DNA of 64,000 bases from Escherichia coli. Its GTDB lineage: Bacteria; Pseudomonadota; Gammaproteobacteria; Enterobacterales; Enterobacteriaceae. Made by a program: the position numbers and the translations under genes. Numbering within the stretch: position 1 is the first letter of the stretch; every line of letters starts with the position of its first letter. Under the pieces are notes generated by a model. It saw only the letters and a list, made by a program, of their open reading frames with translations, was not told the origin of the DNA and searched no databases. The stretch lies in the NCBI RefSeq assembly GCF_044324875.1, contig NZ_CP172185.1. One strand, 5' to 3'. This document shows positions 4,084 to 29,173 of the stretch, in pieces.

Positions 4084-5579
4084 TATGCGGACTCCTCTGA
4101 ATACTGAAGACGGAACTGGTTAACCACGGCAAAGACACGCAGCTGGTTAACATAGTCAGGCGGGAACAGCGTGTTCAGGCGATTTGGATCGCTGGCATCA
4201 CGCTCCACAACCAGGTACTGCTTAAACAGTTCGTAGTTTTCCACGATGCCCGCACGCTCGAGCTGACGGTAGGTTGCCAGCAGTTCCCCTTTGATCACCG
4301 CCGGGGTGACAATCGCCTGACCGGGACCAAAGCGGGTACCGTCGCTGGCAAGCTTGTGACGCCCGTACTTACTGGTAATGACGGATTTCAGTTTGCGCAG
4401 TACATACGCACTGGTATGCAGCGTCTCGCTGTCGAGGTAGCTGTTATCCGCAACCCCGTAAGCATTTTCCCTGTACGTGGTGACATCACGCTGAATGCGC
4501 AGCACCCCGCTTTCGACATACGCCGTTGCCACGCCATGAGACAGCAGGGTCTGTTGTTCTGTCATCGTGAACCGTTTCCCCTTCGGCGCAGGCAGCATAC
4601 CCACCAGCTCACCGGTCTGCGTGGGACGTGCCGGATCGTTGCGAATAAACACCGCTGCGCGGGCGGTACGGCTTGCCGCCAGCTCGTCGGCAGGCGTCTG
4701 GGTGTCTTTTTCGTATCCCGCCAGGGTAATGTGCTGCTGGTTAAACTGGTCACCTGCGGTCACCAGTTCTGACAGCGTGCCGATCTTTGCCGTATACACA
4801 TGACCATACAGCTGACGCGCATAGCTCCAGCGACCGCTGGTATCGTTCATCTCGGTCACCAGCGTGTTAACGGAGGCCGTGTCGTTGAACGGCAGGCCGA
4901 TATAATCAAACGGCTCATCCGCCATTGCAGCCACCGCGCCGGTGAGAACCGGAGCGCCCGTTCCGGCGGTACCCGTCGCCACAGCAATCTGTACACCCGC
5001 TGGCAGCACTTCGCCACCACCAAAGCCGTAGTAATTGAGGCTGACAGGAATTTCATTCCCGCAAAGCCCCTTATGACGCGCGGTCAGCGTGACCACGCCT
5101 GCCGAAGATGAGGCCGTAAACGGCAGGGTCGGAACGGCATTGATGGCATCCTGGATACTGCTGGCAATCGTCGTGACGTTATCGCCGTTGGTCACCGGTG
5201 CCTGCACGCGGGTACGTCCCACATAAACATTCACCGTGCCGCTTTCGGTTGCTGCTCCAGTCACCGTCAGCGTAACCGTTGCCGCCGCGCCCGTGGATTC
5301 AGGAACGGCAATCACATACAGCTCACCAAACGGGTCGGTCTGGCGATAAGCCTCGACCATACGCGCCAGCTGACTTCCCGCACCACAAATCTGGCATGCA
5401 TAGTCTGCCGACGGCATCAGCACCAGACTGTTGGCAACAATCTCTGCACCGTTATTGGCATGACCAATCAGCAGCGATGCTCCGCTGTCCTGTGCAGTAT
5501 TCGCAGCCTGGTTATCCATTTCCGCATAAAACAGCGGAACCAGCGTATTCGACGGAATGGTGTTAAAGCTTATCGTCAT
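4083..5579 (-). CDS. Contractile tail sheath protein (Mu L-like)
   Basis: 498-aa ORF, MTISFNTIPSNTLVPLFYAEMDN N-terminus typical of myovirus sheath proteins. Confidence 0.75.
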   Translation of the reverse strand: MTISFNTIPSNTLVPLFYAEMDNQAANTAQDSGASLLIGHANNGAEIVANSLVLMPSADYACQICGAGSQLARMVEAYRQTDPFGELYVIAVPESTGAAATVTLTVTGAATESGTVNVYVGRTRVQAPVTNGDNVTTIASSIQDAINAVPTLPFTASSSAGVVTLTARHKGLCGNEIPVSLNYYGFGGGEVLPAGVQIAVATGTAGTGAPVLTGAVAAMADEPFDYIGLPFNDTASVNTLVTEMNDTSGRWSYARQLYGHVYTAKIGTLSELVTAGDQFNQQHITLAGYEKDTQTPADELAASRTARAAVFIRNDPARPTQTGELVGMLPAPKGKRFTMTEQQTLLSHGVATAYVESGVLRIQRDVTTYRENAYGVADNSYLDSETLHTSAYVLRKLKSVITSKYGRHKLASDGTRFGPGQAIVTPAVIKGELLATYRQLERAGIVENYELFKQYLVVERDASDPNRLNTLFPPDYVNQLRVFAVVNQFRLQYSEESA

Positions 5580-5741
5580 CGGTATTCACCTTTTTATTCA
5601 CGCGCCGGATATCACCCGCTGCTTCACGGCGCAGCCAGTAGTTGTTCTCGTCAACATTTCGCCCTTCGGCGGGCAAAAGGTCGCCGCGGGCAGGGTCAGG
5701 CACTGACCGCCCTTTAACAGGTTTCACAAACATGAGGATCC

Positions 5742-6302
5742 TCAGGAAGGAAGGGTTATTTCGGTGTGATGTTCGATATCGCCGTCAGGCCCGTTACCGG
5801 GATCGAGATAATCAACATCAATCGCCAGCGTTCGCAGTTCATCCAGACTGTTCAGGTCATCCTGCTGGCGGGTATCGTCTTCGGTCAGCTCGCTGATGAC
5901 CGAAAAATCGAACTGATAAATCAGCTCATGACGATTCAGATCCAGCAGCGTGCCGCCGTCATAGGTAATCGGGTTACCGCACGCTTCCGGGTTCCAGCCC
6001 AGCAGAGCCTTAAAGAGCATCTGCCGGACATCGTCCACCACATCATACGAGGCAAACTGACCGCGCTCATCACGCCCGTTACTCAGTATGACAACCACGG
6101 AGAAGCCCTCTTTCAGCTCCTGCCAGTAGTCGGTCTGGCTTTTGTTTTCTCCCGGAGAGTCATCACCCGGTACCACATACGCCGCCGGGAGTCTCAGCTT
6201 TCCGACCTCCGGCAGATTTTTGAACTGTGCCGCGCCTGCCACCCGGTTTTCAAAATACGGGCAGCGGGCACGCAGCGCAGCAATAACAGGCGTCAGTTTC
6301 AT
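5742..6302 (-). CDS. Phage structural protein (head-tail joining or tail completion)
   Basis: 186-aa ORF in head-tail joining block; position-based. Confidence 0.4.
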   Translation of the reverse strand: MKLTPVIAALRARCPYFENRVAGAAQFKNLPEVGKLRLPAAYVVPGDDSPGENKSQTDYWQELKEGFSVVVILSNGRDERGQFASYDVVDDVRQMLFKALLGWNPEACGNPITYDGGTLLDLNRHELIYQFDFSVISELTEDDTRQQDDLNSLDELRTLAIDVDYLDPGNGPDGDIEHHTEITLPS

Positions 6303-6805
6303 CTGTGTCGTCGCTCCGGCTTCAGTGATTTACGCAATTCCCGCGCCAGAAAATAGCGTGTCCAGCTGCGGTTCTTTTCAAGAGTTTCCACCATAAAGTT
6401 ATTACGTGGAGCCAGCCGCCAGCCGCTGCCACCGGATGCACCACGATGATGGCTACGACGACGTTTTGCTCCTCCCCGGACACCAAAAAACAGAAACGCC
6501 GGATAGAAGTCACCAGAGATCATCCGGTTCCCCTTCCCGTTGCGCTGGTTAGGGGCAATGCGTGTCATAAAACCGGCTCGCTTTTTACTGGCTCTCGGCA
6601 CCATGTAACCAATCGAACGAGCCAGACGTCCGGTCTGATAACCGGGATTTTCACCCGGTGCCGACCGCGCACGGCGCATCACCAGCCGACGGGCATTACG
6701 CATATGACGCTGCCCAATCGTGACAAACGCCCGCCGGACACGGGCGCGGTTAAAGCGCATCTCCGCGGGCTGCTGAACATCAACGTGAAAAAAGGGAGTC
6801 GCCAT
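6299..6805 (-). CDS. Phage structural protein, Arg-rich
   Basis: 168-aa basic ORF overlapping neighbours by a few nt in operon arrangement. Confidence 0.35.
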   Translation of the reverse strand: MATPFFHVDVQQPAEMRFNRARVRRAFVTIGQRHMRNARRLVMRRARSAPGENPGYQTGRLARSIGYMVPRASKKRAGFMTRIAPNQRNGKGNRMISGDFYPAFLFFGVRGGAKRRRSHHRGASGGSGWRLAPRNNFMVETLEKNRSWTRYFLARELRKSLKPERRHR

Positions 6806-11044: not shown

Positions 11045-12778
11045 TTAAAGCGAGCGGATCCCATAGGACTCAATGTGGTCAGACAGCGTGTCTTCTTTCT
11101 CGTACAGCATGGCTCTGCCAACCGCCATAATCAGCGCAACTGCACCATCGATTTTGTTTTCCGCCTGCTCTTTGACGGGCTTCACCACATCATCGTTACC
11201 CGGAATGGTTTTGCCGACCACGTTGCCGATACACCAGGTCATGATGGGATTGCCATCATGATGAAAGCGCCCCGATTCAATTGCCGCTTCCAGCTCTTTC
11301 ATCGGGTCGGACATGTTGGTGTAGTTCTGAATGATAGTGATGGGGTTCAGGTCTTCATCAGCAAGGTCATGTGAGAGCCCGGTCGCCCCGAAGGGGTCGA
11401 TGGGTGACTCGCTGACCGGGCTGATTTTGTTCGCCGCTTTGGCCTCTTCGAGGATGTAGCGATAATCCACCTCCGCACCATCGGTAACGGTCAGAACGCC
11501 CATTTCCACCCATTTCTGAAAGCGTTCGGCTGTCCGGCGATCTTCATTTTTCTCGACGCTGTACACCGTGTCATACGGTACCCAGAAACGCGGGGCTACA
11601 CTGTAGTAATGCGTTTTACCGTCAATCTCGCGGGTATAAAGTCGCGCCATGCTGTTCATATCCAGTTTACGCGCCAGGTCAAAGGCCAGAATGCACGGCT
11701 GCCCCTCGAACTGCTCAAGGGACAGTGATTTATCCTCGCAGCTCTGCCAGCTCACCAGGTTGAAATACGCCGAACGCGCCGACACCCAGATATTGAGGTG
11801 TTTTGTTTTAAAGACGTTTGCCAGACGGGCGTTATTTTTCGCACGCTGCTGCTGACTTAACAAAAATTCGCGATAAACCGACACGCCAATATTTGGATTG
11901 GCTTTTTCCAGCACCTGCGGGTCGGTCCAGTCGTCACCTTCATCAACGGTATAGATGATCCCGAACAGTTCATCGTTAGGCACCGAGCCGTTGAGCATCT
12001 CGATGACTTCCCGCCGTTTGTCGTAGCACGGCCCCTCAATGTTGTACCCGGCGGCAGTGATAGCCCACATCAGTGGCTGACGTCGCGCCCCCATCCCGGT
12101 AAGCATCGTGGTGTAAAGCGCATCTGTGGCGTGCTCGTGATATTCATCCACCACCGCACAGTGGGGTGATGAACCATCACCGGGGTTACCGATCAGCGGT
12201 TCAAAACGCGCACCATCCTCCGGACGGTTCATGTTTGAGGCGTTAACCTCAATCCCGAACGCTTCCGTCAGCATGGGTGTGCGTTTACACATCAGTCTTG
12301 CCGGGCGAAAGACTTCCCATGCCTGTTTCTCTGTCGTGGCACCGGAATACACTTCCGCGCCGAACTCGTTATCACAGGCAAAACAATACAGGGCGACACC
12401 GGCAGAGATTGCCGATTTGCCGTTCTTACGGGGGATTTCGGTATACACCTCACGGAAGCGGCGCAGCCGGGAGCCTTTATTGACCCAGCCAAACGCGCAG
12501 CAGATCACAAAGAGCTGCCACGGCTCCAGCGTGATGGGCATCCTCTTAAATGCCCACTCACCCTTGGTGTGCGGCAACAGCTGAATAAATTTGGCGGCCC
12601 GTTCAGCCAGGTCCTTGTCGAAGCGGTAACGAAACGACTTACTTTTTTCCGCCATCAGGTCATCAAGATGGCGCTGGCAGGCCTGAATCACAAACTGGCA
12701 GGCCACAATCTTTCCGCGCACGACATCACGGGCATACTGATTGGCAGCATTTACGTTGGGGTAAGATTTCCGGCTCAT
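11045..12778 (-). CDS. Terminase large subunit
   Basis: 577-aa ORF with ATPase and nuclease regions, overlapping small terminase by 4 nt. Confidence 0.85.
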
Positions 12779-13278
12779 GATTCGATGATTTTCAGAAACG
12801 GGTTAGTGGTTTTCTTCTGCCCCGCCAGGCCAATCAGACGCTGACGGCTGCTGGGGTCGAGTCCGAGCATTGCCCCCGTGCTGCTCATCTCGGACTCCTG
12901 TTCTTTTTTGGCGGTCAGCTCCGGATTTTTGACCATGCCGCCCATTGCACCGGTGATGGTGTTGCCCTGTCTGGCAATATTTTTCACGGCACGTCGCCAG
13001 AACTCGTAGGCCACGCACCACCGCTCAAGCACCGCGAGGTCAGTCACGCACAGCAGGCCCTGACCGCAGAGTTCTTTAGTTGTCAGTTGCCACATGATCG
13101 TAGCGAGAGGGAGATCTTCTTCAGCGAACCACTCCGGTGGCTCAACACCTTTGATGGGCGTAAAAACAGGTTCATCTTTATTCAGGGCTCGCTTGCCGGG
13201 GTTTCCGGCCAGCGCCTTGCGCGCCGTTGGCTTGGGGCGACGCCCGGAACGCCCCGCCGTTCCAGCCATATGCGGCAC
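12775..13278 (-). CDS. Terminase small subunit (P27 family-like)
   Basis: 167-aa ORF immediately upstream of large terminase. Confidence 0.65.
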
Positions 13279-13394
13279 TCCTGGTTAAATTTCATTTTTC
13301 GCGGGTATAAAAAAACGATGGGGCGGGCAGTCCGGAAGACGTCAGGTCACAGAGATTTGACCCGCCCCTCCCCTCAGACAGTTGAGAGTTATTA
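13279..13394. other. Putative cos / packaging recognition region
   Basis: Inverted repeat GGGGCGGGC...GCCCGCCCC at about 13321-13370 between HNH endonuclease and small terminase. Confidence 0.3.
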
Positions 13395-13745
13395 TCACTT
13401 AAGCCGTTCACGGGCCGTCTTCGCCTTATGGCACGGCCAGCACAGACTCTGCATATTACTGTCGGCATCAGTGCCACCATGTGCTTTAGGGATGATGTGG
13501 TCAACGGTTTTCGCTTCACGCGCCACACCAGCACGCAGACATAACTGACACAGGCCTTTGTCACGTTGCAGCACACGCACACGGATAACATCCCACTTAG
13601 AACCATAACCGCGCTGATGACGGGATTGTCCAGGTTTGTATTGCTTCCAGCCTTCGCTTTTGTGGCTTTCGCAGTAGCCTGAAGGGTCCGTGGTTGTAGA
13701 GCGGCAGCCGCGAACACGGCAGGCTTTTGGGGTTCGTGGGGGCAT
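13395..13745 (-). CDS. HNH endonuclease (packaging-associated)
   Basis: 116-aa ORF, Cys-rich zinc-finger pattern and HNH catalytic core (DHIIPKAHGGTD...CHPCH-like). Confidence 0.85.
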   Translation of the reverse strand: MPPRTPKACRVRGCRSTTTDPSGYCESHKSEGWKQYKPGQSRHQRGYGSKWDVIRVRVLQRDKGLCQLCLRAGVAREAKTVDHIIPKAHGGTDADSNMQSLCWPCHKAKTARERLK

Positions 13746-13876
13746 CCAATCACCTCTTAAATTATTACTATAGTTCTATCTATAACTTCGCAAATAAAAA
13801 TACCGGAGAACTAATCATCAAAAAAGATAATTAGTTCAACCAGCATTAATAATATGGAATATCCAGACAATCTATT

Positions 13877-14332
13877 TCATTTTAAATCTATATATAACAT
13901 TTTCCCTGCAAGCAAGGCCAATTCTGATTTAAAACCCTTTCCGGCCAAGAAAGCCATTTGAAGTTCTCGTAAATTATCCATGGTTTTAGAAATATCATCA
14001 TTTGAGTTAGATGATAGATAAATATTGCACCTAGATTGCAATTCATTAAAGGCTCTGATAATCAACTTTCTATTAACATAACCTTCATCATTTTCTAAAT
14101 TCTTTGGCATAGAAATCAAAGTATTATTATACTCAATGATAGCATCCATCAATTTCAATTTTTTGTCTTCATTATACTGTTTTTTCCATTGCCCTAATGC
14201 GAGAAAACCCACAATCCCTGCGAACAAAGTAACTCCAATACTCGCCAGACTCACAAGAGCAGAAAATTTAGCCCAAAATGCAGCATCTCTGTTAGCTACA
14301 AGAGTTTCATAAGCAATATAAGTAGCGTCCAT
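13877..14332 (-). CDS. Hypothetical single-pass membrane protein (AT-rich cargo)
   Basis: 151-aa ORF with one hydrophobic helix, very AT-rich, in bor-equivalent moron position. Confidence 0.45.
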   Translation of the reverse strand: MDATYIAYETLVANRDAAFWAKFSALVSLASIGVTLFAGIVGFLALGQWKKQYNEDKKLKLMDAIIEYNNTLISMPKNLENDEGYVNRKLIIRAFNELQSRCNIYLSSNSNDDISKTMDNLRELQMAFLAGKGFKSELALLAGKMLYIDLK

Positions 14333-14448
14333 TTACACCTCACTTTATTTTAGAGGTGATTATAGCAAATTACATTCAATCAGGGCTGTACAGTTTTTTA
14401 TCAATTATACTTCGCCATCTCGCTATTATATAACAATATCTTTACATA

Positions 14449-15078
14449 TTGATGGCGTGCCAGCACAATACTGTCACGTACAACCATTCGGATTACTCAG
14501 AGAAAAGTATGATTCAGGATTTACTGATCGAAGCAATTAGTCACGATAGGATGCATAAAAAGTTAAATGAACTGAATTGCTACTTCTACAATCGCAAACA
14601 TGAAACACAAATACGTGATGAGTTAGTTGTTATAATCAATCAAATCAGCACACTAACTGCTTTAAGTGAGCATCCAAAACTCGGTATCGGCGCTGTTGAC
14701 ATATCACTTTATAACCAGTCGATATTGACGCCTGAACATAATGGCAATGTTGCAACCATCGAGATAAAACATCATTACCCAAAAGATTTGCTTTATCGGC
14801 AGGTTCAAGAAGATATCACTTCCGATATTTCAAGAGTAATAGTTTCACCAACTACACACTTTATCCATATAATCCAGCAAAGAACCAGAATTAAAACTCC
14901 TTCTTTTGGTCAAGTGAAATTCCTTGAACGTGATGCAAGTGATATCAGCACTTATGTGCAATATCTTGAGGAGCTAAGTTCATTTCCCAGTAATTTTCAT
15001 AAAAAAAGTGTATGTATTGAGGTAATTGGTGAAATTATGTCGACATATACCTTTAACGTATATTCATTTGACAACTGA
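14449..15078 (+). CDS. Hypothetical protein (AT-rich cargo, opposite to late genes)
   Basis: 209-aa ORF, AT-rich, divergent from 13877-14332; true start may be internal Met near 14509. Confidence 0.45.
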   Translation: MMACQHNTVTYNHSDYSEKSMIQDLLIEAISHDRMHKKLNELNCYFYNRKHETQIRDELVVIINQISTLTALSEHPKLGIGAVDISLYNQSILTPEHNGNVATIEIKHHYPKDLLYRQVQEDITSDISRVIVSPTTHFIHIIQQRTRIKTPSFGQVKFLERDASDISTYVQYLEELSSFPSNFHKKSVCIEVIGEIMSTYTFNVYSFDN

Positions 15079-15099
15079 TTAAACTGTCAATTTTATTGC

Positions 15100-15357
15100 T
15101 TAATGGTTAGTTCTCTCTGAATCTATTTTACGAATGTCAGCTTTATCTCGATTGCAGTTAGCCAGCGCAGACAACAGACTCACATTCAACTCCAGACTAG
15201 CACCATACGTCAGCGGATTAGGTATAAACGGTACAGGAGTATCAGAAGTCAGGCTGGCTGGCAGTGGTGCCACCGGAGCGCTCACGTAAACCGTCCGCGA
15301 ATTTCCGCAACCGGTCAGCAGCGGCAGCAGGCACATGACGTGAAGCACAATCATCAT
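15100..15357 (-). CDS. Rz1: Rz1-type outer-membrane lipoprotein spanin (o-spanin)
   Basis: Lipobox LLTGC and proline-rich tail in alternative frame overlapping 3' end of Rz. Confidence 0.6.
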   Translation of the reverse strand: MMIVLHVMCLLPLLTGCGNSRTVYVSAPVAPLPASLTSDTPVPFIPNPLTYGASLELNVSLLSALANCNRDKADIRKIDSERTNH

Positions 15358-15634
15358 CCGTAACAGCCACTTTGATATCTTCCTGGGTTCTCTGTGACTC
15401 CAGTGCGATCTGCTGTTTTGCATGCTGGTTAGCCTCCAGAACTGTATTGACGATTTGTAGTGATTGCAGGACGTTATTGGTAATGGCAGTTGCTGATTCA
15501 GCATTTCGTACAGCCTCATCAGCACGTTTCTTTTCGTACTGATATTTGCTGTAGTAGTGGTTGGCTGACCAGATGAAAGAACCAATGACAGTAACGAAGA
15601 AAGCAGCGATAACCAGCTTATAGCTCAACTTCAT
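15242..15634 (-). CDS. Rz: Rz-type inner-membrane spanin (i-spanin)
   Basis: 130-aa ORF with N-terminal TM helix and coiled coil, directly after endolysin. Confidence 0.7.
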   Translation of the reverse strand: MKLSYKLVIAAFFVTVIGSFIWSANHYYSKYQYEKKRADEAVRNAESATAITNNVLQSLQIVNTVLEANQHAKQQIALESQRTQEDIKVAVTDDDCASRHVPAAAADRLRKFADGLRERSGGTTASQPDF

Positions 15635-16094
15635 TTACCACCCCACCAGCCTCTTTAAACCGGGCAATCAGGTCACCGATTTTATGTTCATACTGACCGT
15701 AACCAGCACCCGGCAGTGAAGCCCAGATATTGCTGCAACGGTCGATTGCCTGACGGATATCACCGCGATCAATCATCGGTAAAGCGCCACGCTCTTTAAT
15801 CTGCTGCAGAGCTACAGCGTCCTGGCTTTCTGGAGAAAAATCTTTCAGGCCAAGCTGTTTACGGTAAGCATCCCACCAGCGTGAAAGAAGCTGGTAACGT
15901 CCGGCGGCTGTTGATTTGAGTTTGGGGTTTAGCGTGACAAGTTTGCGAGGGTGATCGGAGTAATCAGTGAACAGTTCACCACCAACAATAACATCATAAC
16001 CGTGGTTACGTGTCGGTTGTCGCCCGTTATCCGTTCCTTCTGACCATGCCACCATATCGAGGAAAGCTTTACGCTGGGAATTTAGTACCTGCAT
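15618..16094 (-). CDS. R: Endolysin, lambda R-type lytic transglycosylase
   Basis: 158-aa ORF near-identical over most of its length to recalled lambda R (NQRKAFLDM...AWSEGTDNGRQ...). Confidence 0.9.
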   Translation of the reverse strand: MQVLNSQRKAFLDMVAWSEGTDNGRQPTRNHGYDVIVGGELFTDYSDHPRKLVTLNPKLKSTAAGRYQLLSRWWDAYRKQLGLKDFSPESQDAVALQQIKERGALPMIDRGDIRQAIDRCSNIWASLPGAGYGQYEHKIGDLIARFKEAGGVVNEVEL

Positions 16095-16097
16095 AAA

Positions 16098-16424
16098 TTA
16101 CTCCTTAGAGCCACCAAACTTATTACCGATTACTCTCATTGCAGCCCCACGAATAGCATCGACACCGATCAGCCCCACCCCACCACCAATGGCAACAGAA
16201 AGCGATTTAGGCCATCCGACATACTCAAGAGCGGATGCAAAAGTCAGCGTCAGAGCGCCACAGAGTAGAATTTCGAGTGTTTTTCGCTTCCAGCCACCAC
16301 CACCGCCAAAATAGGCAATGCGCAAGCCAGCCATAACGATCGACATAATCACTGCGCCCAGTGGTGTGTCTCCACGCCACCAGCTCTGGACCAACTCCAG
16401 CCAGGTATTTGGGTTATGAGGCAT
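16098..16424 (-). CDS. S: Holin, lambda S-like class I
   Basis: 108-aa ORF with three hydrophobic segments and charged C-terminus, immediately upstream of R. Confidence 0.75.
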   Translation of the reverse strand: MPHNPNTWLELVQSWWRGDTPLGAVIMSIVMAGLRIAYFGGGGGWKRKTLEILLCGALTLTFASALEYVGWPKSLSVAIGGGVGLIGVDAIRGAAMRVIGNKFGGSKE

Positions 16425-16564
16425 TTGTAGTTATCTCTCACCTCGCCGATACAGGAGGTGCAAATTGAGGGAGTACCACGAACCGCAAACCAGAAGCGGA
16501 AACGTAAAAGAAGCCGAGCCAATGGATAAGTACTAGATAGACCAAGCCCAACGAATACCAAGGC

Positions 16565-16598
16565 CCAGAAATGACAAAACCCGCTCGACGGCGGGTTT
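16565..16598 (-). terminator. Intrinsic terminator upstream of holin (tR'-like)
   Basis: Hairpin AAACCCGC-cgtcga-GCGGGTTT followed by T-rich tract on minus strand. Confidence 0.5.
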
Positions 16599-16755
16599 AA
16601 GCTGTGTGGCAAAGTAACCACTCTTAACACGATATAATACTTTTTGCGTACGCGTTAACTTTTTCTGTAGTATTTAGTGTAAGATTCTTCACAAGATAGA
16701 TACTTTGGAGTACATGATGTAAAGTGCTGTATGCATAAACAGTACAAAGGATATC

Positions 16756-17277
16756 ATGATGAACAAATTAGCACGCTTATTATTAACAGCCAGCTCAATT
16801 GCACCTGTTTGCGCAACTCTATTTTTTATTGGATATGTAAAAGATACGGTTTGGCTGATGCAATATAGCTTATGCGTTGGCATAGCAAGTTGGTTATTAG
16901 CAATAGGCCTGATTCAATATGCTGAGAAACAACTTGAACCTCTGACAAAAAATATTAGTTCAGTTTCTCCCGCTAACAAAGAAGTAACTAATTATTTCTT
17001 AAGCTATTTATTCCCTCTCCTAGGAACAGATTCTATTGCTGAAAATAAAGCATATGCGTTATTCTTTTATTTATCATTGTTATTTTACATCAGCTTTTCC
17101 GAGAACTATAACTTTAACCCAGTATTGTCACTTATCGGTTATAAATTTTACGAAGCTGAAGATGACACCGGCGTAGGTTTTGTATTGATTTCTAAATCAG
17201 TTATTACTGATATTAAAGATATCAAATTTACAGTTATTCAATTAACAGACTACACATTTCTACATGTTAAAGGATAA
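16756..17277 (+). CDS. Multi-pass membrane protein, first gene of AT-rich cargo cassette
   Basis: 173-aa ORF with 3-4 hydrophobic helices, AAGGA ribosome-binding site, opposite strand to flanking late genes. Confidence 0.6.
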   Translation: MMNKLARLLLTASSIAPVCATLFFIGYVKDTVWLMQYSLCVGIASWLLAIGLIQYAEKQLEPLTKNISSVSPANKEVTNYFLSYLFPLLGTDSIAENKAYALFFYLSLLFYISFSENYNFNPVLSLIGYKFYEAEDDTGVGFVLISKSVITDIKDIKFTVIQLTDYTFLHVKG

Positions 17278-17282
17278 TAACC

Positions 17283-18167
17283 ATGGCACTTTTTGCAGTA
17301 ATAGATAATACAATTGCAACGAGAATTGTTAGAGTCGAACTTGATGCAACAGCAAGTACTTCTGTTACGGCCATTTTCCAACAACAGCGTCAATATTTTG
17401 AAAGTCATCATAACAATATGATACCATTCTATGCCGGTTATACACCAAAACATAGTGAGTGTTTTGAAATACAAAACTTTACTGATTCTGCACGCCTGAT
17501 TGACGCAGTCAATAGGCCTACCGCCGTGCCTATCTGGGATCCTAGCCAAATTGATATTGGTTATATTAAAGCATTATTTGTTGGTGTTGACGCGCCAGCA
17601 AACCCCAATATTATTGCACTACAAACTTTCAACAAAAAACAAATCTTAGATACCTCAAAATCATTCTTTGGAAAGCTTTTTGCAAGCAAAACTACCTTTA
17701 GTAAAGCTAATAGCATCGGTTTTAATGTTGATGATAAACTAGTTGCAATAATTATCAATGATACAATACGATTTAAGAGTTTCTTTAATCTAAGAAGCAT
17801 TTTTGACATGTCGTCCTATTTTTCTGCTGCTACTGACCAAGAACTTAATGCATTTAGTCAACTTAGTGTATTTTCTACTCCCCAAGGTTTTGATCTAAAA
17901 TCCGTTGCAGATACAGTGATAAGAAATAAAGTAACACTAATAAATCAGACTGGGATGCTAACACCCCAAAATATGTCAAAGTTTAAATCCGAAGCTGCTA
18001 AAGTTAATTTCCCCTTACAAACCATAATAGTTGGCGGTGTTGAGAAAATTGTCATGCCTTCATCAAAAAAAGAAATAAAAGCCCTTCTTGACTTTCTTGA
18101 GGAAGACATTTGGGTTTCTGGAATAAGTGGAAGACGCTTTAAATCGAATTCAAAGCGCCCAATATAA
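17283..18167 (+). CDS. Hypothetical soluble protein, second gene of cargo cassette
   Basis: 294-aa ORF starting 5 nt after the preceding stop with its own AAAGGA ribosome-binding site; AT-rich. Confidence 0.6.
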   Translation: MALFAVIDNTIATRIVRVELDATASTSVTAIFQQQRQYFESHHNNMIPFYAGYTPKHSECFEIQNFTDSARLIDAVNRPTAVPIWDPSQIDIGYIKALFVGVDAPANPNIIALQTFNKKQILDTSKSFFGKLFASKTTFSKANSIGFNVDDKLVAIIINDTIRFKSFFNLRSIFDMSSYFSAATDQELNAFSQLSVFSTPQGFDLKSVADTVIRNKVTLINQTGMLTPQNMSKFKSEAAKVNFPLQTIIVGGVEKIVMPSSKKEIKALLDFLEEDIWVSGISGRRFKSNSKRPI

Positions 18168-18188
18168 CTAGAAGACAGTTAAGAATAG

Positions 18189-18551
18189 TTAACAGGCAAG
18201 AGTGCAAACAATGCCTTCAATGAAACCAAGCGATGTTTGCAACTCTTTCCTGATAGTCCCATCCGAACACTTTCTCTTCTTAGCAATGGCTCGCAATGAA
18301 ATCCCTACCACAAAATGGGCTATAACTAACTCATACTCTTCTGGTTTGTACTTTCTTAATCTAGCTACGCACCCATCGATCATGAGCCCCTCATCATCAT
18401 CACACTGAATCCGGGACTTTTTGCCATGAGGTAAAAGCCCCTTGAAGCCAGCGGCTACCGGTTGCCAGTCCACTCCGCTATTGTCTGAAGCAGCCCAAGC
18501 TCCCCAACGATCCATCACTTCATACATATCACGCATCAACTTTCTCCACAA
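18189..18551 (-). CDS. Late-gene antiterminator Q (DLP12 QuuD-like); start probably at Met 18533
   Basis: ORF shares the WGAWAA...AAGFKGL...CSDG pattern of the small Q family as recalled. Confidence 0.75.
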   Translation of the reverse strand: MWRKLMRDMYEVMDRWGAWAASDNSGVDWQPVAAGFKGLLPHGKKSRIQCDDDEGLMIDGCVARLRKYKPEEYELVIAHFVVGISLRAIAKKRKCSDGTIRKELQTSLGFIEGIVCTLAC

Positions 18552-18553
18552 AA

Positions 18554-19549
18554 TCAGGCCAGTACGCCAATTGCCAGCGCACGATCGATAAAACGAAATA
18601 TCAGCTCCAGCTGAGAGCCATACTTCTCTTCAAATGCCACGGTATCCGCATGCAGCTCGTCGTGATGCTTTCTGCACAAAGGCAACACAAAGAGGTCATG
18701 CGCTTTTGTACCCATTCCACCCTGACCGTGGCCTATCAGATGGTGGGGATCATCAGCAGGCTTTCCACAACATGCACACGGCTGTGTCTTAACCCAGCGC
18801 GTGTACTTTTCATTAACCCAGCGGCGGCTTTTTGGGCGTAACATAAAAGACTCCGGCGACTCCGGATCCACTTTCAGCGCCAGCACCTTTTTCGCTTTAT
18901 CCAGGATGATGCTGGTGGCAGGAACCGAAGGCACAAGGTCACTTTCCCGGGTGACAGACGGCACAACAGGTTTCGGTAATCTCAGCGCCTTACGGGCTGC
19001 GCTTTCAGGTAAGGCATCCGCCAGGTCATTACGAATCAGCCACCAGCACAGTTCCGGCATTGTCACGGCATGGTTATCATCAGAATCGAGATCCCGACGG
19101 ACTACAGACAACACCCAACGGGCACAGTTATCCGTTGCCATTGATTCCAGCCGCTCCGTGAACTGATCACGTAACTGATTATCGCAGTGCCAGCACAGAC
19201 GGATTGCACCCGGCGCGTGTCGCATTGTGGTCATGTTCTCGCTGTGCCAGTCGGAATGAGGCCACTGGCAGCCTTTTTCACGAAGTAACCAGCTTTCAAG
19301 ACATTCCAACCCACCAGCACGACGAATCACTGCCTCATTACGGAACACGGCCCGAACGGCAGGATCATCCGCCAGCGGTTGTGATGCCGCCGGAACGGCA
19401 CCACTGGCGAAAGATGAATAACGTTCCGGCTCAGGCTCCAGCAGGACACGCCCCTGCATAAACAGGGGCATCAGCTCTGAACCTGGCCTGAACAATACGA
19501 TCCCCATACGCGGGGCAATTTCAGGGGTCAGTAGCGCTCTCACGGTCAC
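18554..19549 (-). CDS. DUF968-family prophage protein
   Basis: 331-aa ORF with C-terminal Cys/His cluster CACCGKP...HHLIGHGQGGMG typical of this prophage family. Confidence 0.6.
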   Translation of the reverse strand: MTVRALLTPEIAPRMGIVLFRPGSELMPLFMQGRVLLEPEPERYSSFASGAVPAASQPLADDPAVRAVFRNEAVIRRAGGLECLESWLLREKGCQWPHSDWHSENMTTMRHAPGAIRLCWHCDNQLRDQFTERLESMATDNCARWVLSVVRRDLDSDDNHAVTMPELCWWLIRNDLADALPESAARKALRLPKPVVPSVTRESDLVPSVPATSIILDKAKKVLALKVDPESPESFMLRPKSRRWVNEKYTRWVKTQPCACCGKPADDPHHLIGHGQGGMGTKAHDLFVLPLCRKHHDELHADTVAFEEKYGSQLELIFRFIDRALAIGVLA

Positions 19550-27767: not shown

Positions 27768-28304
27768 ATGTCATTTATTAAAACTTTTTCCGGGAAGCAT
27801 TTTTATTATGACAAGATAAATCAAGACGACATCGTTATTAACGATATCGCGGTTTCCCTTTCAAATATCTGTCGCTTTGCAGGACATCTTTCACATTTCT
27901 ACAGCGTCGCCCAACATGCGGTGCTTTGCAGCCAACTGGTGCCGCAGGAATTTGCTTTTGAAGCGTTAATGCATGATGCAACAGAAGCGTATTGCCAGGA
28001 CATCCCGGCGCCACTGAAACGCCTTCTTCCTGACTATAAACGGATGGAAGAAAAAATAGACGCCGTAATCCGTGAGAAATACGGGTTACCCCCAGTTATG
28101 AGTACACCCGTGAAATATGCCGATCTCATCATGCTGGCAACTGAACGCCGCGATCTCGGGCTTGATGATGGCTCTTTCTGGCCAGTACTGGAAGGTATCC
28201 CGGCAACAGAGATGTTCAAAGTTATTCCACTGGCACCGGGCCATGCCTACGGGATGTTTATGGAACGCTTCAACGAGTTATCGGAATTACGCAAATGTGC
28301 ATAA
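27768..28304 (+). CDS. HD-domain phosphohydrolase (YfdR-like 5'-deoxynucleotidase)
   Basis: 178-aa product with H..HD metal-binding signature (HAVL...MHDATEAY). Confidence 0.65.
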   Translation: MSFIKTFSGKHFYYDKINQDDIVINDIAVSLSNICRFAGHLSHFYSVAQHAVLCSQLVPQEFAFEALMHDATEAYCQDIPAPLKRLLPDYKRMEEKIDAVIREKYGLPPVMSTPVKYADLIMLATERRDLGLDDGSFWPVLEGIPATEMFKVIPLAPGHAYGMFMERFNELSELRKCA

Positions 28305-29173
28305 CTCATGTAGTTAGTTTTTCTGGCGGGAGAACATCCGCATATCTTGTTCACCTGATGGAAGAACAAAGAAAGGCTGGCAATAACGTCTGCTACATCT
28401 TTATGGATACCGGTTGCGAACATCCGCTGACATACCGCTTTATCCGGGAGGTTGTGAAGTTCTGGGACATACCACTAACTGTGTTACAGGTCGATATAAA
28501 TCCTGAGCTTGGGCAGCCAAATGGTTATACAGAATGGGAGCCAACGGATATTCAGACACGAATGCCGGTGCTTAAACCGTTTATGGACATGGTTAAAAAG
28601 TACGGCACGCCATACATCGGCGGCGCGTTCTGTACTGACAGGCTAAAACTCATCCCTTTCACGAAATACTGCGATAACCATTTCGGGCGAGGTAATTACA
28701 TCACATGGCTGGGTATTCGTGCAGACGAACCCCGTAGGCTGAAACCGAAATCGGGCGTCCGGTATCTTGCCGAGCTGTCAGATTTTGATAAGTCGGATGT
28801 TATCCGGTGGTGGCGAAAACAACCTTTTGATTTGCAAATCCCGGAGCATCTCGGGAACTGTGTTTTCTGCATCAAAAAGTCAACGCAAAAGCTGGGGCTT
28901 GCATGTAAAGACGAACCAGGTCTGATGCGAGTTTTTAATGAGCTGGTTACAGGCAAACACGTCAGGGATGGTCATCGCAGAACAGGTAAAGACATTATGT
29001 ACCGTGGTCACCTGACGCTTGACGGAATTGCCAGAATGTCTGCCAACAGCGACTACAGAAATTTGTATCAGGCGATGGTACAGGCCAGGCGATTCGATAC
29101 CGGCTCGTGTTCAGAGTCATGTGAAATCTGGGGTGATCAATTGGAATTGGAATTCGAAGAGGTAGGGGTATGA
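28295..29173 (+). CDS. PAPS reductase-like PP-loop protein
   Basis: 292-aa ORF with N-terminal SFSGGRTS PP-loop ATP-pyrophosphatase motif. Confidence 0.7.
   Translation: MCITHVVSFSGGRTSAYLVHLMEEQRKAGNNVCYIFMDTGCEHPLTYRFIREVVKFWDIPLTVLQVDINPELGQPNGYTEWEPTDIQTRMPVLKPFMDMVKKYGTPYIGGAFCTDRLKLIPFTKYCDNHFGRGNYITWLGIRADEPRRLKPKSGVRYLAELSDFDKSDVIRWWRKQPFDLQIPEHLGNCVFCIKKSTQKLGLACKDEPGLMRVFNELVTGKHVRDGHRRTGKDIMYRGHLTLDGIARMSANSDYRNLYQAMVQARRFDTGSCSESCEIWGDQLELEFEEVGV

Follow-up and report, generated by a model that had tools for sequence, protein, structure and literature searches.

A predicted antisense nuclease and a membrane protein occupy the lysis–packaging cargo slot of an SfV-like Escherichia coli prophage

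Two divergent genes, here called ORF-A and ORF-B (ORF, open reading frame), lie in an AT-rich insert that separates the lysis genes from the packaging genes in an SfV-like prophage, which adjoins ybhC in an Escherichia coli chromosome. Both were analysed within a 64,000-nucleotide stretch of contig NZ_CP172185.1 (hereafter the window). The insert measures 1354 bp from the start of the terminase-associated HNH gene to the stop of the spanin gene Rz1, and its G+C content (GC) is 0.335, compared with 0.556 in the HNH gene, 0.489 in Rz and 0.505 over the whole window. The late operon of the prophage lies on the minus strand; ORF-A is codirectional with it, while ORF-B is antisense to it and convergent with Rz1. 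An earlier, sequence-only reading of this DNA had reported a 151-amino-acid minus-strand ORF and an antisense plus-strand ORF in an insert of composition unlike its neighbours, and both the two ORFs and the compositional difference are borne out here. The features of the insert are as follows.

13746..15099 (no strand): AT-rich cargo insert in the lysis–packaging hotspot of the SfV-like prophage, from GC and comparison with phage SfV
14509..15078 (+): ORF-B, predicted 189-amino-acid soluble PD-(D/E)xK (restriction-endonuclease-like) nuclease, from start evidence, alignment and structure model
13877..14332 (-): ORF-A, 151-amino-acid single-pass inner-membrane protein with a C-terminal four-helix bundle, from the ORF list, hydropathy and structure model
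14441..14469 (+): promoter-like element for ORF-B, TTTACA-17-CACAAT, a consensus match
14383..14408 (+): residual 3' end of a phrog_14397 gene and left boundary of the ORF-B module, from the megablast edge and the UPEC_U013 alignment
14336..14367 (-): putative 5' control region of ORF-A (extended -10, CACCTC arm, Shine-Dalgarno), read from the sequence
13792..13847 (-): terminator-like hairpin and U-rich tract just 3' of ORF-A, from an RNA fold

In the ORF list, ORF-B begins at a TTG codon and spans 14449..15078 on the plus strand (209 amino acids). Because all of its homologues start with MIQ.., the 189 positions of phrog_12494 align to residues 21-209 of this long form, and the RefSeq annotation is 189 amino acids long, the gene almost certainly starts at the ATG at 14509 and encodes 189 amino acids. 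The TTG extension overlaps the conserved promoter-like element listed above. With the ATG start, the spacer between the two genes becomes 176 bp instead of the 116 bp (14333..14448) of the ORF list, and the 209 amino acids and 116 bp given by the sequence-only reading are to be corrected to these values. Both genes are under purifying selection, with a ratio of nonsynonymous to synonymous substitution rates (dN/dS) of 0.25 for ORF-B against its E. coli UPEC_U013 copy and of 0.14 for ORF-A against its Enterobacter copy (72% identical). They are real genes and not chance ORFs.

ORF-B is a protein of about 22 kDa without a transmembrane segment, and as a query it matched nothing in scans of Pfam, NCBIfam and PADLOC. 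A tblastn search of 50,697 phage records gave no match, and a sequence search of the PDB with a 33-sequence family profile and the distant member P0045 returned nothing significant. The family is small: a word-indexed search gave 26 clusters, and among 1.84 billion proteins there were 42 representatives at E <= 1e-3. Its close homologues are all from Enterobacterales. Across an alignment of 33 sequences, which reaches down to 20% identity, residues K30, E32, E54, D64, E85, K87 and D93 are invariant. The AlphaFold2 model (predicted local distance difference test, pLDDT, 84; predicted template modelling score, pTM, 0.84) has an alpha-beta-beta-beta-alpha-beta core made up of helix 31-46, strands 49-53, 65-69 and 80-89, helices 91-107 and strand 117-127, and only about 25 residues precede this core. 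D64 heads the second strand, E85-I-K87 lies within the third, and E32 sits in the preceding helix, such that the core fold, the strand-2 acid and the strand-3 (D/E)xK by which the PD-(D/E)xK superfamily is recognised are all present in the model. In a Foldseek search of AFDB50, almost all named matches were annotated as 'Restriction endonuclease', PD-(D/E)XK, TnsA_N or HsdR_N, and the best structural matches were type II enzymes. Profile matches within the family point the same way: one of the 33 members matches HSDR_N at 2.2e-4, one matches PDDEXK_9 at 0.03, and one of ten members tested, a distant relative, matches a single PADLOC SduA model at 1e-5 over 69 residues. Taken as a prediction from alignment and model, the assignment of ORF-B to the restriction-endonuclease-like nucleases, in an unnamed family, is well supported. 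The sequence-only reading had found that neither protein resembled anything recognisable and had proposed remote homology searches and structure prediction for both; for ORF-B, these approaches give a nuclease fold with an invariant motif, and that statement no longer holds.

No methyltransferase gene stands beside ORF-B or its homologues in any context examined. Three distant homologues stand singly: one between tusA/recJ and an acetyltransferase gene, and two near WYL/WCX regulator genes, with SocA_Panacea and PDDEXK_2 genes also nearby in one case. In three SfV-like IMG/VR prophages (L087, L088 at ~5115..6320, and L089), an insertion sequence of the IS3 family, with orfA/orfB transposase ORFs, cuts ORF-B after codon 38; these three contigs also have duplicated TerS/HNH segments, and the duplications may be assembly artefacts. 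For comparison, tai of phi80 was inactivated by transposon insertion once its antidote was deleted (PMC11364771). Literature searches with the RefSeq, UniProt and PHROG identifiers of the ORF-A and ORF-B families returned no papers.

ORF-A contains a single hydrophobic segment at approximately residues 23-47, with a 19-residue Kyte-Doolittle maximum of 2.24 at residues 26-44, in agreement with the single-pass membrane protein proposed from the sequence. Since the charge flanking this segment is -1 on the N-terminal side and +3 on the C-terminal side, the predicted topology is N-out/C-in. In the structure model (pLDDT 79), helices span residues 2-74, 83-108, 112-129 and 135-149; the long first helix holds the membrane segment, and the three later helices pack onto it as a four-helix bundle whose pLDDT is 80-94. 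ORF-A matches nothing in Pfam, NCBIfam or PADLOC, and it matches phrog_6169, a family of unknown function, at 5.8e-11. Foldseek returned uncharacterised enterobacterial proteins of about 150 amino acids, and similarity to four-helix-bundle sensor domains was non-significant. Remote homology and structure prediction therefore leave ORF-A as a transmembrane helix and four-helix bundle with uncharacterised relatives. Neither ORF-A nor ORF-B is related to structural or packaging proteins, consistent with what the sequence-only reading had supposed. At 48 IMG/VR loci and in several genomes, every relative of ORF-A is encoded on the late strand, with Rz/Rz1 on one side and the terminase or HNH gene on the other, and in most cases there is no further cargo. 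A 184-amino-acid variant of the type of sal3 gp133, which has its N-terminal 92 residues in common with ORF-A, is the usual occupant in SfV-like prophages. We also considered ORF-A as an additional i-spanin and dropped this candidate: Rz/Rz1 are already present, a compact bundle is predicted, and there is no embedded lipoprotein ORF.

ORF-A appears to carry its own expression signals. A putative extended -10, TGCTATAAT, lies at 14367..14359 (-), followed by the CACCTC arm at 14358..14353 (-) and the Shine-Dalgarno sequence GAGGTG at 14341..14336 (-); the -10-like TAnAAT and the Shine-Dalgarno sequence are kept in the Enterobacter and phage sal3 homologues. The CACCTC/GAGGTG hairpin (14336..14358, -) pairs the Shine-Dalgarno sequence (-11 kcal/mol, z = -2.7), and analogous pairings are possible in the Enterobacter and sal3 homologues in another register. 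We speculate that, if transcription starts after the predicted -10, the CACCTC arm would be absent from the cassette's own transcript and present in late read-through RNA. Downstream of the gene, the RNA fold of 13770-13880 (-) has an energy of -34.4 kcal/mol (z = -6.3 against shuffled sequences) and includes a terminator-like hairpin with a 12-bp inner stem and an outer stem, followed by AUUUUUAUUU; a consensus terminator scan missed this hairpin because its stem is AT-rich. As read from the sequence, this putative promoter-gene-terminator arrangement is the classical layout of a moron, that is, a mobile cargo cassette.

Upstream of ORF-B, the TTTACA-17-CACAAT element is kept in the UPEC_U013 and other E. 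coli copies, while the Enterobacter, Klebsiella and Yersinia copies instead have in common a TATAAT about 35 nt upstream of the ATG. Promoter-like elements for both genes are accordingly found in the spacer, which agrees with the divergent transcription that the sequence-only reading had placed there and which these elements would predict. Neither a consensus scan nor RNA folding found a terminator between ORF-B and the convergent Rz1, whose stop is 21 bp away.

To determine whether the two genes belong together, we compared their distribution. Of 5426 complete E. coli genomes compared with the insert by megablast, 79 contain ORF-B, and their similarity covers only the part from window position 14383 rightwards. 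ORF-A was absent from all 5426, even with distant blastn, and hence from all 79 carriers of ORF-B. Among 55 IMG/VR loci with ORF-B relatives, ORF-A is present in two and phrog_14397 in about 27, and the rest have no recurring partner; conversely, both genes are present at two of the 48 IMG/VR loci of the ORF-A family. Lone relatives of ORF-A are found in Enterobacter, Serratia, Salmonella and E. coli prophages. ORF-B occurs by itself in Klebsiella and Yersinia prophages, is preceded in Enterobacter by an unrelated ORF of 72-75 amino acids, and has no recurring neighbour in other prophage types where its copies are 50-70% identical. Wherever lysis or terminase genes are recognisable, ORF-B lies between them and is always antisense. 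A search for recurrent partners among all ORFs within 1.3 kb at 59 ORF-B loci yielded only lineage-specific phage genes and phrog_14397, the latter in the E. coli clade only.

The phrog_14397 product is an acidic protein of 110-111 amino acids and unknown function, encoded codirectionally upstream of ORF-B in the 79 E. coli genomes and in about 27 E. coli prophages of IMG/VR. Copies of its gene lie at 5691..6026 of L001 and at 5569..5901 of L002. In the alignment with UPEC_U013, similarity starts in the last codons of the 111-amino-acid phrog_14397 gene. Since these last codons survive at approximately 14383-14408 of the window, ORF-A has replaced the phrog_14397 gene here. In Enterobacter, the ORF-A homologue adjoins an antisense phrog_14397 gene, and all three pairwise combinations of ORF-A, ORF-B and phrog_14397 therefore occur in the slot, which we read, from gene content, as a probable shuffling of cassettes within one site. 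The proposal that the divergent pair might form a toxin-antitoxin-like unit is not supported by this comparison, as ORF-A accompanies ORF-B at two of 55 loci and in none of 79 genomes; because the two families occur independently in nearly all related loci, we favour neither such a unit nor any other obligate two-gene system. Adjacent divergent orphan genes need not be one system, and the comparative data here show independent assortment.

The slot itself is variable. In phage SfV, 26 bp separate the HNH start from the Rz1 stop, compared with 1354 bp in the window; other cargo is found at this point in related phages and prophages, and one close prophage relative has about 420 bp there without an annotated gene. 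The near-empty junction of SfV and the differing cargo of its relatives identify the HNH-Rz1 junction as a variable cargo slot. A further occupant is a 168-amino-acid late-strand protein of phrog_5789 (function unknown), not related to ORF-A or ORF-B, which is present in phage vB_EcoM-689R6 (L018, 1900..2406) and in L088 (7343..7849). The late-operon genes around the slot are listed below in their order of transcription.

18189..18551 (-): Q
16098..16424 (-): holin
15618..16094 (-): endolysin
15100..15634 (-): spanin flank, with Rz1 (from 15100) and Rz (15242..15634)
13395..13745 (-): terminase-associated HNH endonuclease, the other flank of the insert
12775..13278 (-): TerS
11045..12778 (-): TerL

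The lysis–packaging slot of lambdoid prophages is an established home of lysogen-expressed cargo, for example bor and Tai. We take bor of phage lambda to occupy the same position, between Rz1 and the packaging genes and antisense, and the sequence-only reading was right to see acquired cargo at this junction, which is the slot of both lambda bor and phi80 tai. ORF-B resembles bor in its antisense placement between Rz1 and the packaging genes. The likeness ends there, as neither protein has a lipoprotein signal: the N-termini MDATYIAYETL.. (ORF-A) and MIQDLLIEAIS.. (ORF-B) are without signal peptide or lipobox, which speaks against a bor-like lipoprotein role for either. With regard to the features by which morons are recognised, both genes deviate in composition from their surroundings; ORF-A has the putative extended -10 and hairpin, and ORF-B has a promoter-like element and no terminator. 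The HK97 gene for gp15, annotated as a 'moron product', has a terminator directly downstream, comparable to the terminator-like hairpin of ORF-A, whose deviant composition and putative promoter-gene-terminator layout are likewise those of a moron. However, gp15 is 62 amino acids long compared with 151 for ORF-A, and the two are unrelated (hhalign probability 0.13%).

The closest parallel in gene order is the Tai/Ati pair of phi80 (orf63/orf64; He et al. 2024, PMC11364771). It occupies the same slot and, as in the window, a gene of about 200 amino acids runs antisense to the Q-dependent late operon, with a late-strand gene after it. Tai genes in prophages are located predominantly upstream of the packaging module, and antisense tai of phi80 is made in the lysogen, its level dropping when Q drives late transcription (PMC11364771). 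There is, by contrast, no sequence relation between the proteins: hhalign probabilities are 0.4% for ORF-B and TaiEcA (orf63) and 0.16% for ORF-A and AtiEcA (orf64), the PHROG families differ, and ORF-A and ORF-B are not together in most loci. By analogy with phi80 tai, ORF-B may likewise be made in the lysogen and lowered by Q-driven late transcription.

In its core fold and E...D...ExK motif, the predicted ORF-B structure is like those of type II enzymes (R.SwaI, BglI, BamHI), Mrr/HsdR N-terminal nuclease domains and the DUF4263 domain of Shedu SduA. It differs from type II restriction-modification systems in having no adjacent cognate methyltransferase, and it is essentially a bare nuclease domain of 189 amino acids without a sensor or DNA-recognition domain or a partner methylase. 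As in Shedu, ORF-B would be a single-gene nuclease without a methyltransferase, but the ORF-B query has no SduA/DUF4263 match and no N-terminal regulatory domain. A further comparison is with SNIPE (PD-lambda-1), a membrane-bound nuclease in which membrane tethering can replace methylation as the means of self-protection (Saxton et al. 2026, PMC13190303). ORF-A offers a predicted N-out single-pass anchor with a cytoplasmic domain, and a nuclease gene lies next door. SNIPE, however, is one polypeptide with a transmembrane segment, DUF4041 and GIY-YIG, whereas ORF-A has no Pfam domain and the PD-(D/E)xK protein ORF-B is encoded by a separate divergent gene. Given the co-occurrence data, it is unlikely that ORF-A and ORF-B would constitute a split SNIPE.

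Taken together, we consider it rather probable that the insert is a mosaic of two independent, mobile cargo cassettes, or morons, one for a defence-type nuclease (ORF-B) and one for a membrane-acting protein (ORF-A). A role in defence or exclusion is a reasonable inference from position, orientation and company, which includes the Kiwa system described below. ORF-B would be a solitary soluble nuclease read from its own promoter against the late operon; it would be present in the lysogen and reduced once Q-antiterminated late transcription crosses the gene, as for the non-homologous phi80 tai. Its most likely job would be the cleavage of nucleic acid from superinfecting phages, with no cognate methyltransferase involved. 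If ORF-B does cut phage nucleic acid, the lack of such a methyltransferase implies that it would be type IV-like (modification-dependent) or otherwise trigger- or structure-dependent. ORF-A would be a separate cassette of promoter, Shine-Dalgarno sequence, gene and terminator encoding an inner-membrane-anchored four-helix-bundle protein, which most likely would act at the membrane in superinfection exclusion or membrane-level defence.

Several observations weigh against this interpretation. The defence models of PADLOC 2.0 match neither protein, and ORF-B has no PDB sequence match even at E = 10. The promoter calls for both genes are consensus matches, and a scan of 13600-15300 returned five promoter-like sites compared with 6.6 expected from shuffled sequences, so that the ORF-B hit taken alone has no statistical weight. 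A constitutive free nuclease without a methyltransferase would need self-protection of another kind. The IS3-family disruption of ORF-B in three prophages fits a costly gene as well as a dispensable one, and a lysis accessory might likewise be expected in the invariable place that ORF-A takes on the late strand, directly behind the spanin genes.

This last alternative, under which ORF-A is no moron but belongs to the lysis cassette as an accessory, perhaps a regulator of lysis timing or of the antiholin type, and is expressed together with the late operon, is in our estimation unlikely. In its favour, Rz/Rz1 directly precede the family on the late strand in 48 of 48 IMG/VR loci and in all genome loci examined, its gene is often the only one before the terminase or HNH gene, and the protein is small with an N-terminal transmembrane segment, as are many lysis regulators, T4 RI and P2 LysA among them. 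Against it, ORF-A has a GC of 33% where the lysis genes have about 50%, SfV and many close relatives do without ORF-A and lyse normally, the family moves among unrelated types of lysis and terminase genes, the gene comes with a putative -10 element and a terminator-like hairpin of its own, and the predicted topology of the protein places the bundle in the cytoplasm. We find it still less probable that the two genes form a functional two-gene system, be it defence and late counter-defence as in phi80 Tai/Ati, toxin and antidote, or a nuclease kept at the site of injection by a membrane anchor, as in a split SNIPE. The architecture is phi80-like, with an antisense gene of about 200 amino acids interrupting the late operon just upstream of packaging and a late-strand gene after it; ORF-A, ORF-B and phrog_14397 are seen in this slot in each of the three possible pairings, and SNIPE shows that tethering to the membrane can solve self/non-self discrimination by a nuclease. 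Weak co-occurrence is also not fatal to such a system, since the Tai study found only five Ati-like versions among genomes with 57 Tai homologues (PMC11364771). Yet 53 of 55 IMG/VR loci and every one of the 79 E. coli genomes have ORF-B and no ORF-A, ORF-A is mostly without ORF-B, ORF-B stands alone in the Klebsiella and Yersinia prophages, and hhalign relates neither protein to its phi80 counterpart.

For ORF-B, two other roles have to be weighed against that of a defence-type nuclease. It is improbable, in our judgement, that ORF-B is an orphan type II-like restriction enzyme whose host sites are protected by a methyltransferase encoded elsewhere, either host Dam/Dcm or a prophage methylase. 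The type II enzymes among its best structural matches favour this possibility, several ORF-B-bearing prophages do have a DNA methyltransferase elsewhere, and the close homologues are all from Enterobacterales, which are generally Dam-positive. However, no ORF-B context examined has an adjacent methyltransferase, including the varied genomic contexts of its distant relatives; the slot that holds a methylase in UPEC_U013 holds Kiwa in the window, and a 97%-identical prophage has no annotated methylase between Q and int. Least likely of all would be a nuclease that serves the phage or itself, as a free-standing homing endonuclease or an accessory of recombination or packaging. Its proximity to the packaging genes and to the gene for an HNH endonuclease might suggest such a function, and PD-(D/E)xK nucleases with homing and recombination roles are known, but ORF-B is antisense to the late operon at every locus, its flanks are unrelated between prophage types, which leaves no conserved target for homing, close relatives lack the gene, and its relatives also stand singly in chromosomal contexts outside prophages.

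Under the mosaic interpretation, the lysis–packaging slot gains two uncharacterised families whose members are unnamed but of known kinds. ORF-B is the more useful lead, being a bare, predicted restriction-enzyme-like nuclease of 22 kDa that is under purifying selection, always antisense, and without a neighbouring methylase in any context. If its role is indeed defence, the question becomes how so minimal a nuclease spares the host chromosome. A bolder version, which we regard as a long shot, is that ORF-B founds a new single-gene, methyltransferase-independent family of anti-phage nucleases that lies antisense in many enterobacterial prophages and is switched down by late read-through in a non-contiguous operon, with ORF-A or the phrog_14397 protein as an interchangeable tether or restraint that would provide SNIPE-like spatial self/non-self discrimination.

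The prophage has a second cargo region. An Rfam scan of 13000-19000, which covers both regions, gave only chance miRNA-like matches far below threshold. The holin gene and Q are separated by a complete Kiwa defence system in antisense orientation (16756..18167, +), within an AT-rich island of 34% GC at ~16650..18188. KwaA is 173 amino acids long (16756..17277, +; PADLOC 1.9e-83), and KwaB, with DUF4868, is 294 amino acids long (17283..18167, +; PADLOC 2.3e-150). Related prophages have other genes at this position, namely a DNA methyltransferase gene in UPEC_U013 and another pair annotated as 'anti-phage protein' in strain 2021CK-01784, and because its occupants vary among relatives, the holin-Q slot is a second cargo hotspot of this prophage. 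In the early region, a gene at 28295..29173 (+) that adjoins yfdQ/yfdR-like genes encodes a 292-amino-acid protein, whose counterpart in the 97%-identical prophage is annotated as 'phosphoadenosine phosphosulfate reductase domain-containing'.

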